A stretch of 33,839 nt of DNA from the NCBI GenBank assembly GCA_026025075.1, contig JAPEUI010000156.1, positions 1 to 33,839 of the forward strand. Direction: 5' to 3'. Made by a program: the position numbers and the translations under genes. Within the stretch, counting starts at the first letter, position 1; the number at the start of each line of letters is the position of its first letter. The notes beneath the pieces are model-generated. The model saw nothing but the letters and a program-made list of their open reading frames with translations, was not told the origin of the DNA and searched no databases. Shown piece after piece: positions 8,052 through 14,448 of the stretch. This stretch comes from Vezdaea acicularis (Eukaryota).

Positions 8052-10195
8052 TCACTTCCCACGATCTATCTCCTCCAGCCGAATACTCACCGCCCTGCGA
8101 TGCGCCTCCAACTCCTCGACCCTCGCCAGCTGCATGACCGCGCCCCCCACATTCCTCAAGCCCTGCTTCGTCAAATTCGCGCTGGTGATATGCTTAACAT
8201 ACGATCCAAGATTGACGCCAGAGTACTGTTTCGCATAGCCATAAGTGGGAAGGGAATGATTGACGCCGGCGGCGTAATCGCCGACGCTCTCGGGGGTCCA
8301 GGGGCCGAGGAAGACGCTGCCGGCATTCTCCACCATCTCGAGGACCTGCTCGGCGTTCCGGACTTGCAGGATGAGGTGTTCGGGGGCGTAGTCGTTGCTG
8401 AGCTGCATGGCTTCGGTGATAGTTTTCGCGAGGAGGGTTACGGAGTGTTGGATGGCGCCGCGGACGATGTCGACGCGGGGGAGCAAGTTCGCTTGGGCGT
8501 GCAGCTCGGCTTCGATAGCGGCGAGGGCGGGTTCGTCGAGGTCGACGGCGATTAGGATGACTTGAGAGTCCGTGCCGTGTTCTGCCTGGCTGAGGAGGTC
8601 GGAGGCGACGAAGGCAGGGTTGGCGGTTGTGTCCGCAACGACAAGAACTTCGCTCGGACCAGCAGGCATGTCGATGCTGACACCAGCACTCGTATCGTTC
8701 GACACGATCATCTTTGCGGCGGTGACGAATTGGTTTCCTGGGCCAAGGATCTTGTCGACTTTGCTAACGCTTTCAGTCCCGTATGCCATGGCAGCAACCG
8801 CTTGGGCGCCGCCGGCAAGGACGATGCTCTCGGCGCCGACTTTGTGGGCGGCGTATACGATCTCAGGGGTAATCGAGCCATCCGATCTTGGGGGCGAGGC
8901 GAGCACGATTTTCTTGCAACCGGCGACCATCGCGGGTATGCCGAGCATGAGCGCGGTCGAGGGGAGAATGGCGGTCCCGCCGGGGACGTACAGGCCGACG
9001 CGCTCGATGGGCCGGCTGAAGCGCGAGCAGACCACGCCGGGCATCGTCTCGACGATCAGGGGTTTCTCCTCCTTTTGCGCGCTGTGGAACTTGCGGATGT
9101 TCTCGAAGGCTATGTCGATGGCTTGTATGGTCTCGGGGGGGAGTTGCATGAGGGATGCTGGGAAAGGGGCGCGGATGACGGGAGATGTGAGGGAGGTGGC
9201 TTTTTCGAACTTGTGGGTGTATTCGAGGAGGGCGGTGTCTCCTCTAGCTCGGACGTCTTTAATGATTGGATTGACAATTCCCATTATTTGGTCGGTCGAG
9301 CGCTGTGAAGGCCTTTGGAGTACCTCTTGGAGAGTTGTTGCTGGAGTAGTGGTAGTGTCGTATCGCCTCATCTGTATCCTTCCATCCTTAACACCTGAAG
9401 GATCGTTGGCGCTCTCAGGGACTGAGGTAGCTACTTTAACCACCTCTTGACTGTCACTGTTTGTGTTCGTATCCGTGACACCATTCGCAATACCCTCCCT
9501 CTCCGCCCACGGCCCCTTAGCATCGCCTTTCCTCCTCGTCGTCTGCCTGCTCTTCTCATCCAGATTCCTCTCAATATCCTCCAAACTCACCCCCGCACCA
9601 ACACACTTCGTGAGCGCAAAGTAAATGAGATCTGCCGCCTCGAACGCAACCTCCTCCTTCGACTCCGCAGCGCACAGCTCATCCGCCTCCTCCATGATCT
9701 TCGCCCTGAGCAACTTCGGGTCATTATAAAGCCGCGCCGTATACGAGCCCGCCGGCGCACTCTCCTTCCTCGCCCGAAGCGTCTGCTGAAGCTTCGAAAG
9801 ACCGGTGTAATCGCCGAAACACGTCGCTGTCTGCAAGTGGCAGAACCCTACTCGCGCATGAGCGGTGATGGAGCATTACAATCGGGCATCAAAAACCTAC
9901 CGTTCCCCTTCTGCCGCACAACGAACCTCAAGCTGTCCGCATCGCAATCTAGCTCGATCCTGACAACCTCTTGGGTATCCCCGCTGCTCTCGCCTTTATA
10001 CCACAGCCCGCGCTTCCTACTCTGATACACGCCTCGCCCGGTCTTGAGACTCTCCTCCACGCTGGCTTTCGAGCTATAGACTAATCCGAGCGCGACGCCC
10101 AGTTCGTTCGTGACGATGGTGGGAATGAGCCCGTCGTCTCGATCGGACACGATTGTGTCGAGCAGCTCGGGCGTGAGTTCCCTCGTGGCTGCCAT
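8052..10195 (-). CDS. HIS4: Histidine biosynthesis trifunctional protein (PR-AMP cyclohydrolase / PR-ATP pyrophosphatase / histidinol dehydrogenase), ~696 aa
   Basis: LGLVYSS...YQSRKRGLWYKGESSG...DCDAD..FCH (PRA-CH), GSYTARL..KIMEEADE..EAADLIYF (PRA-PH), IDMPAGPSEVLV, SQAEHG, APEHL (HDH). Exons 10195-9901 and 9847-8052; intron 9900-9848. Start in context ACAATGG; an in-frame ATG at 10222 is an alternative. Confidence 0.96.
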
Positions 10196-10221: not shown

Positions 10222-10556
10222 TAGAAATGGATGGTGTCGCGTAGTGGGGTGAGTGTCAGTCGAGAAATTATTTTGCGGGATTGTTCCACTAGCGCCCAAT
10301 GCAACCAAAGCATAACTTAAACTCTGAATGCACGCTGACAACATGTCGTCCACCTGTCTCCAGAGTTTTTGGCATTTTCGAAGTAAATCAATCTGTGATC
10401 GTTATTTAGTACCTTTACTTGTGGCCATCTAGGTCCTACGCATCAACCCCCCCTGTCCCTCCCCGCGCTCTTCGCCCTTTCCGCCCATCTCCGCCCCGCC
10501 CCGCCCCTCCACCCCGCTCGACCTCCGAGTCCGCTTCCCCCAAAAAATCCAACCCC

Positions 10557-11349
10557 ATGAGCGACACCAGTTCCACGTACGCCCCCCCCCCTCCCCATTC
10601 CATCCCCAACCACACTCACCCCCCCTCCCAGCCGCTCCTCCCCCCACCCCGGCCCAATACCCAAAACCCTCCGAATCGTCGGCCCCGAGAACAGCGGCCG
10701 CGAAACCCTCGCCGGGTGCCTCCTCTACAAAGTTCTCTCTCCCCCCTTTTCCCCTTTCCCCAACCCCTTTCCCCCTAACTAACCCCCACCAGGCCAACGC
10801 CCTCCCCCCCTCCCTCCTCACCCGTTTCTCCAACAGCCACATCCGCTCGTACTCTTCCATCGTTCCGACCCTCCTCTCATGGAACATCCCCCCCAGCTTC
10901 GACACAGTCCGGTACCGCATCTCCTACACGACGGCGCCTGATCCGGATATCCTCCTCCTCGTCATATCGACGAGTCCGATGATGGAAACGATCCCCGACG
11001 ACGTCTCGAGCGAGCAGGTAAGGCTCTACCGGGAGACTAGAAACGTGGTTGTATGTGTTAGTGGGATGTAAGGTTCCCCCCTGTATCCCCTCCTGATGCG
11101 ACCACCCCGCTGACGGGTTGATGAGGATATAGGGAAACAGTATCCTGGTCCGAACCCGCCTTCCTCTCTGTCGTCGAAGCTGTAACCGATATCCTCGACG
11201 CGGTAGGCGTGGATACGTCCCGTGTGCCGTTCATACCGGTGGATTGTGCGACGGGGGCGAATTTCTTTGAGTTTTCGGCAAAGGCGCCGTGGTTTGAGGC
11301 GAGGGAGGGGGCGAGGACGGTCTTGGAGGCGTTGGATGGGTGTGTTTGA
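10557..11349 (+). CDS. Degenerate EF1A/HBS1/eRF3-like G-domain-only protein (probable pseudo-GTPase), ~203 aa, 4 exons
   Basis: Exons 10557-10576, 10632-10731, 10793-11067, 11133-11349 (612 nt, in frame). Product: LRIVGPENSGRETLAGCLLYK...FDTVRYRISY..DILLLVIS...NVVVCVSGMETVSWSEPAF...VPFIPVDCATGANFFEFSAKAPWF...TVLEALD, colinear with EF1A domain I. Exon 1 and the weak GTTCTC donor of intron 2 are least certain. Confidence 0.75.
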
Positions 11350-11573: not shown

Positions 11574-13901
11574 TCAATTCCCCCCCACAACAAACCGAAC
11601 CCCCATCAACACGCCCACCTCCCCAAACTCCCCCATCCTCGCCGACTTCACCTCTCTGAGCCCCTTTTCCCTGATCCTAGCTTTATCCACTGCTGTATTA
11701 CCACCCGCCGCCGCCGCCGCCGCCGCAGGGGAAGCCGTAGCTCCCGTCACAGCGCCCATCCCATCCCTTACAGCCCCTGAAACTCCAGTGGTCGATCCAG
11801 CTACTCCCCCCTCATCGTCGCCCCACCGCCCGCCCTCCGCATACGTGAGTACGGCATCACTATTCAACACACTGGGCGTCCAGTCCTTCCCCACACTATT
11901 CCTCGCCGCAACAATGAGAAGACTCGCTTTACCTCTAGACGACGGCGGAGTACTCGCCGGACTTCCCGCAGTAGACAACGGGGATTGATAGCGGGTTCGA
12001 GGGGGCTTTTGCGTGGACTTGCGGCCCAACAAAGTGGACGAAGCGGCAGAAGCAGGTGTATTAGAGCCAAGACCTGATCGAGCAGCAGCTTGCTCGGCGC
12101 GAGCGGCGGAAGCGCGTAACTCTTCGAACCACTGCGTCGCAGAGGGTAAACGCGCGGGACCGTACTGGGGCAGGTGAAGCGGCGTTTCCGGTATCGTGGG
12201 TGAATCGCCCGTCGTTTGGCTTGCTGGGGGTGAGAGAGCGAGGCGCTTCAGTCCTGGTTGTAGTACGCCCGCCGTACTATCTGGCGCATGAAAGCGTTTA
12301 CGAGGAGCGGAAGAGGTTGAGGGGTTGGATGGAGTGGTACTCGCCAAGGCTTTTTTCGCGGCGGTCTTTCTGGCTGATGGGGTTCTTTTCCGTGGACTTG
12401 GTCTGGGAGACGCGGAGGTGGTTTTCTGGCTGGTGGTGGGCGGTTTGATGGGTGTGTAGATCAGGGGTGGAATGGGCACGGGGGTGCGAAGTAGGGGAGA
12501 GGCTGCTGCTACCTTATGCGACGGCGGCAGCGGTGGGTCGCCTGCTTTGACAAGAGTAAGGCCCTGTGGTGCAGCCCGCGGGTCATGCACGATGCGGGTG
12601 CTGTGCTGCGTCTGGGGTTTATTCGTGGTGGACCAGCCGCGAGAGAGTCTCAACTTGTTGCCTCCTGCTTGTTGGCTTTTCGGGACGGGCGAGCCTTCCT
12701 TATGGCGGCCTAGGCGGCGGGTCGAGGTATTCGCCGGGTGAGGAGAAGCTTGGAAAGGAGTAGGTGGAGGCGGCATTATCGAATTGTCCGCAGCTCCTGC
12801 AAGGACCTCACCAGGGCGTGTCTTGTCGAGTCGAGGCGTGAAGCAGGGATCCAACATCCTCATTGGGGCGTTAATATAGTGGTGATTTGATTCCAACTTG
12901 CGACCCCTTCCCACAGTAATCAGCACGTCGATGACGCCGTACCGTTGCCCACCAGGTCGTTCCATCCGAGCGACTTCCTCTGGCATTGGCAGCTTCGCGA
13001 GACTCGTGAGGTACTCCCCGGTGTATGTCTTACGACTGCGACTATCCGTGAGCCAGCCCGCCGCCTCCTGATCCAGGGACTTTCCTATGGCATCCCATCT
13101 CGACTGCGGCGTGGGATATATAGACTTGATTCTCTTTCCTAGGACGTCTCGTAGCTCCCCGTCAGGGCCCTGGCCGGGAGGGATGATAACCCAAGCACGC
13201 TCTTCCTTCCGCCCCACCCGCCGGCCAGAGAACAACCGTATCCTTTCTGACGGAGTCGAGATGGAGCGTTTGGGTACGAGCTCGCTGCCGCAGAACTCGC
13301 CATTGAAGAAGACGCTGATCTGGATGTCTTGGAGGTCTCCACGCCTTTTCGTCCGTGGTAGACCGCCTGTTGGGGGACTAGGAGAGAGGAAGGAGTCAGG
13401 TGAGAGGTTGACGACGACGCCAAGTGTGCGGGGAGCGAGAACTGGCTGGATATTGCTGATCGGCTTAGGCACACTAGGAGAGGTATAGTCGAGTATCATA
13501 TAACTAGAGTTGACTGTGCTCGTAGAATCGGTGGACTTCCGTCTAACAGCAATCGGCTTCAAAGGTTCAGACTTCCGTCCTGCGGATCCTCCTGCCTTGA
13601 CCTCAGATACAGCAGATGTCGAGCTTCTCGTCCTAACTCCTCTTGCGTCGTGGGTGTCTTTGAATATGTCTTTCCCGGCTCGTACCATGAAGAAAGGGTA
13701 GCTGGGTGGCTCGCCGAGGAATGAAACGTGTGAATCTTCACCAGGGATACAGAGTGCCTCCTCCCCAAGAGCAACAGGCACGTAGGAGAAACCTGTTGCC
13801 GTGGATGAATCATTCTCAGCTGAAGAGATAATAGTAGTAGGCTGCGCAGGCACTGAGACGGTCAAGTTGACTGTTGTGAGAAGACTACGGTAGGTTGGCA
13901 T
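11574..13901 (-). CDS. Fungal hypothetical protein, 775 aa, intronless
   Basis: Long ORF. Globular-looking block (DIQISVFFNGEFCGS...FSGRRVGRKEERAWVI...GVIDVLITVGRG) and C-terminal block (WTPSVLNSDAVLTYAE...ARMGEFGEVGVLMGVRFVVG) are separated by a Pro/Ser/Thr/basic low-complexity region. Confidence 0.82.
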   Translation of the reverse strand: MPTYRSLLTTVNLTVSVPAQPTTIISSAENDSSTATGFSYVPVALGEEALCIPGEDSHVSFLGEPPSYPFFMVRAGKDIFKDTHDARGVRTRSSTSAVSEVKAGGSAGRKSEPLKPIAVRRKSTDSTSTVNSSYMILDYTSPSVPKPISNIQPVLAPRTLGVVVNLSPDSFLSPSPPTGGLPRTKRRGDLQDIQISVFFNGEFCGSELVPKRSISTPSERIRLFSGRRVGRKEERAWVIIPPGQGPDGELRDVLGKRIKSIYPTPQSRWDAIGKSLDQEAAGWLTDSRSRKTYTGEYLTSLAKLPMPEEVARMERPGGQRYGVIDVLITVGRGRKLESNHHYINAPMRMLDPCFTPRLDKTRPGEVLAGAADNSIMPPPPTPFQASPHPANTSTRRLGRHKEGSPVPKSQQAGGNKLRLSRGWSTTNKPQTQHSTRIVHDPRAAPQGLTLVKAGDPPLPPSHKVAAASPLLRTPVPIPPLIYTPIKPPTTSQKTTSASPRPSPRKRTPSARKTAAKKALASTTPSNPSTSSAPRKRFHAPDSTAGVLQPGLKRLALSPPASQTTGDSPTIPETPLHLPQYGPARLPSATQWFEELRASAARAEQAAARSGLGSNTPASAASSTLLGRKSTQKPPRTRYQSPLSTAGSPASTPPSSRGKASLLIVAARNSVGKDWTPSVLNSDAVLTYAEGGRWGDDEGGVAGSTTGVSGAVRDGMGAVTGATASPAAAAAAAGGNTAVDKARIREKGLREVKSARMGEFGEVGVLMGVRFVVGGN

Positions 13902-14448
13902 GCTGTGTGGCTACTCCTATGTAGATACTGATGAGGTAATATTTACTTGGTTAAGTTATCGCTATTCCATGGTGGTGTACAGGATAAATAGCACTTTGTA
14001 GTGTTGATGGTGCTTGGGGGACACAGCACGCATAGTTCAAACGAGACGAGTCTGGTGTGTTCGCCCATACGTCGGGCTAACCGGGACCTCCAACACTTCT
14101 TGGGACCTTCATGAGAAATCTACAAGACGGTTGAATGCTACTATTGTATTGTGCCTTCTCAGCGTTGGTCATTGTTACAGCGACAAGGGGGAAGCGAAAT
14201 AATATGAATGCAAACTTAGCCATCAATTTGGCAGTCAAGATGATTTTTAGAGCTGTCCGCCACTGTAAAAAGTGCGGAGGACGCCATGCCCAAGCCCTCT
14301 CTCGCAATTCCCTTCCGTTCATGCTATAACTCATAGAATCGTGCAATGCAATGTACGGATATAAAGCACAAAGCAATGGGCCGAATTCCAAGCGCAAGCA
14401 ACTCGCCAAGCGACGAAAATCTTTGTCTGGTTCCTGACAACAGACGAA

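Follow-up and report, generated by a model that had tools for sequence, protein, structure and literature searches.

The window analysed here, a stretch of 33,839 nucleotides of Vezdaea acicularis (contig JAPEUI010000156.1, positions 1 to 33,839), carries at 10557-11349 of the forward strand a predicted, unannotated gene of four exons, whose product would be a stand-alone protein of 203 residues derived from domain I of the translation elongation factor eEF1A. We consider it probable that this protein belongs to a small undescribed family, that it has kept the G-domain fold and that it serves as a nucleotide-free protein-binding module. The canonical guanine-nucleotide motifs are altered throughout the predicted protein, and a relative with the same deletions and the same end is present in a distantly related lichen-forming fungus.

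The sequence-only reading, made before any database search, had proposed a hidden spliced gene with an open frame of about 203 amino acids and three short introns, and splicing by coordinates confirms it: the four exons join into a coding sequence of 612 nt, that is 203 codons plus a TGA, with zero internal stops. Exon 1 (10557-10576) consists of the ATG (10557-10559) and 17 nt, and this ATG is the only one that can be joined to the frame of exon 2. As the latter frame (open reading frame, ORF, 10561-10782) lacks any Met, its start has to come by splicing from the ATG at 10557, and the predicted intron 1 (10577-10631, 55 nt; GTACGC ... ACTCAC ... CAG) is the sole GT/AG pair that connects this ATG to the P-loop frame. 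Exon 2 (10632-10731) encodes strand 1, the P-loop remnant GPENSGRE (10681-10704) and helix 1, which ends in LLYK. The predicted intron 2 (10732-10792, 61 nt) has the weak donor GTTCTC, is pyrimidine-rich and carries the branch site CTAACTAAC and the acceptor CAG; from its donor GT to its acceptor AG no other G occurs, and it is therefore the only possible intron at that place. Exon 3 (10793-11067) covers the poorly conserved middle of the protein with a shortened switch I, followed by FDTVRYRISYTTAPD with TAPD (10931-10942) in the place of G3 DAPG, the strands ILLLVIS and VVVCVS, and SGM(E) from 11060. The predicted intron 3 (11068-11132, 65 nt; GTAAGG ... GCTGAC ... TAG) interrupts the Met codon of the G4 remnant, and the EF1A-like frame of exon 4 can be reached from the donor at 11068 only. 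Exon 4 (11133-11349) encodes the post-G4 helix WSEPAFLSVVEAVTDILDAVG, the strand VPFIPV, DCA (11242-11250), a loop of the form G-x-N..E-x-S-x-K-x-x-W and the helix TVLEALDGCV, and ends with the TGA at 11347-11349. The branch sites of introns 2 and 3 contain CTAAC and CTGAC, respectively.

Introns 2 and 3 were accepted mainly because their junctions are gaplessly colinear with EF1A. At intron 2, LLYK|ANAL.. aligns with LIYK-CGGI.. of EF1A and with LLYK-CGGID... of the relative from Ptychographa described below; at intron 3, SGM|E-TVSWSE aligns with NKMD-SVKWDE of yeast eEF1A and NKMD-QVEWSE of the same relative. As far as the sequence can tell, the exon-intron solution for an EF1A-like gene is essentially unique. 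The composition of the spliced model is of a coding type, with G+C contents at the first, second and third codon positions (GC1/GC2/GC3) of 0.54/0.51/0.755, against 0.61/0.45/0.71 in the adjoining HIS4 gene, and GC3 reaches 0.79 in exon 3. Among the three forward frames, codon scoring favors the chosen one both in exon 3 (7.9, the others being at -12.4 and -13.3) and in exon 4 (8.1), and the two other forward frames of these exons are closed by stops. No protein identical to exon 4 occurs among the five matches of the representative-protein search (see below), as would be expected of an unannotated gene.

The likeness of the spliced frame to EF1A is, at the level of the sequence, beyond chance. 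When compared with the sequences of the PDB, exon 4 alone (71 aa) matches residues 157-213 of yeast eEF1A with an E-value of 9.3e-7, and mammalian eEF1A, archaeal EF1A, Hbs1 and eRF3 follow in rank. With exon 2 we obtained weak Walker-A-type matches alone, such as GPESSGKT of RecA, and with exon 3 alone no PDB match. In shuffle tests against canonical EF1A (1000 shuffles; reference, the first 245 residues of P0004), z was 18.2 for exon 4 and 8.0 for exons 1-3 together, and no shuffle did as well in either case (0/1000). Together with the gapless inner junctions, these results uphold the proposed colinearity with EF1A domain I. The structural motifs to which the sequence-only reading had drawn attention (LLYK, FDTVRY, W-S-E-x-x-F, VPFIPV, APWF and TVLEALD) are all found in the exon translations, as is the G-x-N loop element in exon 4. 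Furthermore, the strands LRIVG, YRISYT, ILLLVIS, VVVCVS and VPFIPV and the helices ETLAGCLLYK, EPAFLSVVEAVTDILDAVG and TVLEALDGCV persist as hydrophobic patterns.

By contrast with canonical eEF1A, every GTPase motif of the predicted protein is altered, exactly as had been claimed. The canonical GxxxxGK[ST] of G1 has become GPENSGRE (10681-10704), in which the Lys is replaced by Arg and the Ser/Thr by Glu; DAPG(H) of G3 has become TAPD (10931-10942); NKMD of G4, split by intron 3, reads SGME (from 11060); and SG(W) of G5 reads DCA (11242-11250). The alignment of the spliced model likewise bears out the loss of the switch regions, as the switch I block (ERERGITID...) is mostly missing and TAPD is followed by a deletion of the start of switch II. 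The intact G1-G5 set that is required of a functional eEF1A is hence absent. The protein also appears to be truly stand-alone. Its frame stops directly after TVLEALDGCV, where domain I ends, and the forward-strand ORFs downstream of the stop at 11347-11349 gave no Pfam match, whether to GTP_EFTU_D2, to GTP_EFTU_D3 or to any other model. A convergent ORF of 778 codons ends at 11574, 225 bp past this stop, which leaves no room for domains II and III.

The relative came from a HMMER scan with exon 4 against 1.84 billion protein representatives (cut-off E<=1e-3). Only five proteins passed, and four of these are diverse proteins of the EF1A type. The remaining one (P0006, 154 aa, E 9.6e-6) has a C-terminal end that coincides exactly with that of our model, and its 90% cluster contains a longer form of 185 aa (P0009, MCJ1412997.1) deposited as 'translation elongation factor EF-1 alpha [Ptychographa xylographoides]'. 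Exon 4 is 41% identical to this protein in BLASTP (E 7e-16). The Ptychographa protein matches the Pfam model GTP_EFTU (PF00009) from end to end and above the cut-off (E 1.9e-11; 44.4 bits for a cut-off of 26.5), but lies far under the cut-off of the NCBIfam EF-1_alpha equivalog (83.5 versus 540 bits). Its best PDB sequence match is yeast eEF1A (4.5e-16), ahead of Hbs1, eRF3 and Ski7. The profile search that had been suggested as a check of the window gene is therefore positive through this relative, while none of the single exons, each searched against Pfam, matched GTP_EFTU.

A structure prediction, the other check that had been suggested, points in the same direction with a comparable reservation. 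The AlphaFold2 model of the Ptychographa protein has a mean predicted local distance difference test score (pLDDT) of 70.4 and a predicted template modelling score (pTM) of 0.73; its confidence is low in the former switch I region (residues 43-50 and 54-76). In Foldseek this model retrieves eEF1A domain I first (2b7c_A, E 3.6e-11, TMq 0.69), then archaeal EF1A, Hbs1, eRF3, CysN, EF-Tu and Ski7. This result has to be read with two points that weaken it as an argument for the window protein: the model is that of the relative, and the 6-row alignment from which it was built includes EF1A fragments that bias the fold.

Do the window protein and the Ptychographa protein form one family? With phmmer run locally on a file of 8 sequences, to which its E-values refer, residues 18-203 of the spliced model align with residues 4-184 of the Ptychographa protein in one stretch of 69.9 bits, whereas the best stretch of the model to canonical EF1A scores 25.7 bits. 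The corresponding shuffle tests gave z 12.4 for exon 2 (against residues 1-40; 0/1000) and z 25.8 for exon 4. A three-way MAFFT alignment of the spliced model, the relative and EF1A has 175 columns common to all three sequences, 30 of which are identical throughout; a further 28 identities are exclusive to the model and the relative, 10 to the model and EF1A, and 26 to the relative and EF1A. Among the 52 EF1A residues that are absent from the model, 42 are absent from the relative too. The EF1A reference used in this alignment is not a Pezizomycotina TEF1, so that part of the exclusive identities may simply be what fungal EF1A ordinarily has at these columns, but the shared indels and the shared truncation point do not depend on the choice of reference.

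These shared features are numerous. Both proteins are stand-alone G domains that stop after D-x-C-V, both have a GxxxxGR P-loop (the glycine-rich loop of the relative reads GASGTGRAT) and T[ST]AP in place of DAPG, and both show the same switch I and switch II deletions as well as the loss of the EFEAGISKNGQTRE stretch. They differ in that the Ptychographa protein retains YKCGGID, NKMD and SAL, is nearer to eEF1A (32% identity, versus 22% for the window protein) and lacks the proline-rich N-terminal extension of the window protein; over the 175 columns the two are 33% identical to one another. Two TEF1 copies truncated independently of each other would not show such a pattern of identical indels and stop, and we therefore read the two genes as members of one family that would share a truncated and already degenerate ancestor.

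The two copies are found in distant lineages, both of them lichen-forming. A protein deposited as 'MAG: trifunctional histidinol dehydrogenase [Vezdaea acicularis]' matches the large HIS4 exon of the window with 100% identity, whereas the next-best matches, from several classes, are about 80% identical; Lambiella insularis, of the family of Ptychographa, has a HIS4 with only 75% identity to that of the window. In the NCBI taxonomy Vezdaea belongs to the Vezdaeales (leotiomyceta incertae sedis) and Ptychographa to the Baeomycetales in the Lecanoromycetes, so that they differ above the order level. If descent was vertical, the similarity, the indels and the stop were kept across distant lineages, and from this we infer that the family was under purifying selection for most of the divergence. 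A maintained stand-alone pseudo-GTPase accordingly seems to us more likely than a decaying relic. The earlier claim that the gene is maintained is thus strengthened by an end-to-end relative with shared derived states and by the GC3 periodicity, and is weakened by the fact that this relative is a single one.

How could such a protein act? In our reading it descends from eEF1A domain I by loss of domains II and III, and we suppose that the G-domain fold is retained through the surviving core strands and helices, as the colinearity of the window protein would indicate. Lacking the P-loop Lys and Ser/Thr, the Thr region of switch I, switch II, and DxxG together with the catalytic His, it could not operate as a GTP switch. 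Moreover, since NKxD and SAx have been replaced by SGME and DCA, the window copy most likely does not bind guanine nucleotide. It would then be a pseudoGTPase of the class i type, that is, a nucleotide-free protein-binding module.

Conservation across the two members and eEF1A is highest in the post-G4 helix with the following strand and loop, all within exon 4. We take this helix to be the equivalent of 'helix D' of EF-Tu. In EF-Tu, helix D contacts the exchange factor EF-Ts and the L7/L12 ribosomal stalk, and the archaeal stalk tails bind aEF1A; PDB 3wy9 is among both the sequence and the fold matches of the Ptychographa protein. Given that the best-kept surface is the helix D face, we propose that the protein may bind, or compete for, a partner that recognizes this face of eEF1A. 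Binding or titration of a partner at this face is our preferred guess, by analogy, and the earlier suggestion of a scaffold or decoy for EF1A-family partners is speculation of the same kind. A more far-reaching version would make this an old pseudo-GTPase family, stand-alone and nucleotide-free, from eEF1A domain I that predates the split between two lineages of lichen-forming ascomycetes (Vezdaeales and Lecanoromycetes), has been kept since and has been missed by gene finders. With the helix D face its members would bind, or titrate, some partner of the translational GTPases; a modifying enzyme, an exchange factor and the tails of the ribosomal P-stalk are candidates. We regard this version as possible, though tentative; if true, it would amount to a previously unknown layer of translation control.

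Among known systems, canonical eEF1A (TEF1; yeast PDB 1f60, 2b7c) is the best match in sequence and fold, with colinear secondary structure and a kept post-G4 helix-strand-loop, but in the window protein G1-G5 are altered, switch I and switch II are deleted and domains II and III are missing. The aminoacyl-tRNA, eEF1B-alpha and ribosome-dependent GTPase functions of eEF1A would consequently not be expected of it. Ski7 and Hbs1 are likewise EF1-family members that have departed from elongation, and the catalytic features of Ski7 are degenerate (a 'GTPase-like domain'). They have, however, domains II and III and long N-terminal regions (exosome/Ski- or ribosome-binding), whereas the window protein has no extra domains, and they are weaker matches in sequence and fold: with exon 4 as with the Ptychographa protein, eEF1A ranks above Hbs1, eRF3 and Ski7. 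To our knowledge, the degenerate translational-GTPase paralogues described so far, Ski7 and the archaeal aSelBL, all keep tRNA- and ribosome-binding domains. What is found here is an EF1A-derived pseudo-GTPase reduced to domain I; degenerate G domains of the EF1A family as such were already known.

The available part of a 2015 survey of translational GTPases lists eEF1A, EFL, Hbs1, Ski7, eRF3, eRF3-2, GTPBP1/2, eIF2-gamma and SelB as the eukaryotic EF1S subfamilies, with no lone G domain, and a lone eEF1A G domain with eroded G motifs is not among its 57 subfamilies as given there (PMC4342817). The aSelBL proteins, archaeal SelB-like proteins with a disrupted GTPase domain, resemble the window protein as a translational-GTPase paralogue with severely eroded G motifs and a patchy distribution (Atkinson et al. 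2011, PMC3037878); they differ in being archaeal and SelB-derived and in keeping tRNA- and ribosome-binding domains, where the window protein has nothing but the G domain. Class i pseudoGTPases are defined, in another report, by a G-domain fold that is devoid of G motifs and neither binds nor hydrolyses nucleotide, and the N-terminal domain of AAGAB is described there as such a case, which acts by protein-protein binding (PMC12490416). We propose the same mode of action for the window protein, where motif loss is what is seen; homology with AAGAB is limited to the P-loop NTPase fold. AAGAB is kin to small GTPases and not to translation factors. Our literature search found no publication that links pseudoGTPases with eEF1A (elongation factor 1-alpha) or with translational GTPases, nor a genome paper for either of the two species. 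If expressed, the window protein would be a small natural experiment on the capabilities of an EF1A G domain deprived of nucleotide, tRNA and the other domains, and would draw attention to a class of small genes, rich in introns, that go unnoticed in fungal annotation pipelines or receive the wrong label 'EF-1 alpha'.

Several observations nevertheless weigh against a functional, correctly modelled gene. The start codon at 10557 has a C at -3 and the branch candidate of intron 1, ACTCAC, is off-consensus. The donor of intron 2, GTTCTC, is far from the usual fungal consensus GTRNGT, while the only independently verifiable intron of the window, in HIS4, has the donor GTAGGT; should intron 2 not be spliced, the product would end at 10780. 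Two strong donors in exon 3, GTAAGG (11018-11023) and GTATGT (11051-11056), compete with the in-frame one. They had been pointed out from the start, and both are indeed present and would shift the frame of exon 4: joined to the acceptor at 11132, they lead into a frame (11133-11270) that ends in a stop. Exon 3 taken alone is weak against canonical EF1A (z 2.8, 17/1000 shuffles) and barely above the shuffles against the Ptychographa protein (z 2.1, 42/1000). As to codon scores, a reverse-strand frame comes close to the chosen frame in exon 3 (6.8 versus 7.9) and reaches 4.9 in exon 4, and in exon 2 the chosen frame (0.5) is below both another forward frame (2.2) and a reverse-strand frame (5.2). 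Finally, the window copy is the more eroded member of the family, with 10 exclusive identities to EF1A for 26 in its relative, which could reflect relaxed constraint, and the family is hard to extend. A word-based search with an alignment of the Ptychographa protein and exon 4 passed 4 of 544 candidates, namely the Ptychographa protein itself and three canonical EF1A fragments; the same kind of search with exon 4 among longer proteins passed none of 77 candidates at E<=1e-3, and a search of the ESM Atlas with the Ptychographa protein returned generic GTP_EFTU clusters alone. As the word-search collection includes many annotated lichen-fungus proteomes, in which no further annotated copy turned up, the family must be either patchy or systematically missed by gene finders.

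Part of these observations would suit a window copy that is a pseudogene or is becoming one, its frame being open by chance and its correct splicing or expression having been lost in this species. The weak donor of intron 2, the two stronger out-of-frame donors, the nearly unrecognizable middle exon, the loss of NKxD and SAx that the relative has kept, the lower number of exclusive EF1A identities and the lack of an annotated protein in the representative search are all what one would expect of such a relic. Yet 203 codons spread over four exons contain neither stop nor frameshift where the other forward frames of exons 3 and 4 are closed, GC3 shows a coding-type periodicity, the hydrophobic patterns of all core strands and helices are kept, and the stop lies at the same position as in the relative. 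A likeness to a protein from so distant a lineage would presumably not outlast a long neutral decay, and we consider the relic rather unlikely. Much further down the scale is the idea that the model is an artefact, the EF1A-like pieces being part of a larger gene or chance ORFs of GC-rich DNA stitched together. It is true that long spurious ORFs abound on both strands of the GC- and proline-rich DNA of this region, that freedom from stops guided the choice of the model, and that exon 1 and intron 1 owe their place solely to the need for an ATG. But exon 2 and exon 4 each significantly match one and the same protein of 185 aa, in the correct order and at the correct spacing, neither inner junction needs a gap in the alignment with EF1A or with that protein, no Pfam domain follows downstream of the stop, from which the convergent ORF is just 225 bp away, and a profile of the HIS4 N-terminus missing from the window (see below) matches nothing here on either strand. 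This makes an artefact highly improbable.

It could also be argued that the Arg-containing P-loop still binds GTP, ATP or another phosphate ligand, in a slow or hydrolysis-dead switch. The relative does retain NKMD, SAL and a glycine-rich loop, GPENSGRE of the window protein resembles a Walker A motif such as that of RecA, and Ski7, though degenerate, still binds GTP and GDP according to the titles of PDB entries 4zkd and 4zke and to PMC4509514. The window copy, however, has other residues in place of the P-loop Lys and Ser/Thr and of DxxG, NKxD and SAx, deletions remove its switch regions, and what is conserved between the two members does not lie in the nucleotide pocket. Nucleotide binding thus appears improbable, and a nucleotide-free protein-binding module derived from eEF1A domain I remains the reading that we favor.

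Two other sets of matches were met in these searches. Metagenome matches to the patterns V[SE]WSE[PM]AF and [RH]VPFIP.. amounted to 110 stretches, of which 3 were confirmed, and all three are one bacterial CysN and not family members. On these near-identical contigs (L001 782-3324, also L002 and L003) VSWSEMAF occurs in a CysN adjoining CysD, a motif match at chance level inside the broader EF-Tu/CysN superfamily. Among the five representative matches to exon 4, an odd fungal EF1A paralogue of Periconia digitata (P0008, CAI6340621.1, 322 aa) has a predicted start after the P-loop and TQME for NKMD; it retains DAPGH and domain II and does not have the deletions of the window family.

The divergent neighbour of the EF1A-like gene is HIS4 (8055-10195, reverse strand; exons 10195-9899 and 9848-8055), whose ATG lies 362 bp from that of the EF1A-like gene. 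At 696 aa it is identical to the deposited protein, and it lacks an N-terminal domain of about 195 aa that is present in 112 orthologues of 860-905 aa. A hidden Markov model (HMM) of the first 230 residues of these orthologues matched at positions 196-231, in the first exon alone (E 1.6e-14); the rest of the N-terminus was found in none of the six frames of the whole window. As the HMM matched the known first exon alone, we could rule out the EF1A-like locus as a hidden HIS4 N-terminus on the reverse strand. The EF1A-like gene begins where the missing domain would be expected, 362 bp past the HIS4 ATG, and the absence of this domain could result from a real loss, a rearrangement or a contig mis-join. 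On the other side, the convergent open frame (11577-13910, reverse strand, 778 codons) is rich in Ser, Pro and Thr and gave no match in Pfam at E<=0.1. A repeat search around the EF1A-like gene gave short low-complexity matches alone. Directly upstream of its ATG, within the 362-bp region shared with HIS4, lies a long C/T-rich tract (10440-10556, with CCCCGCCCC-type repeats), which is possibly a shared promoter or a 5' untranslated region.

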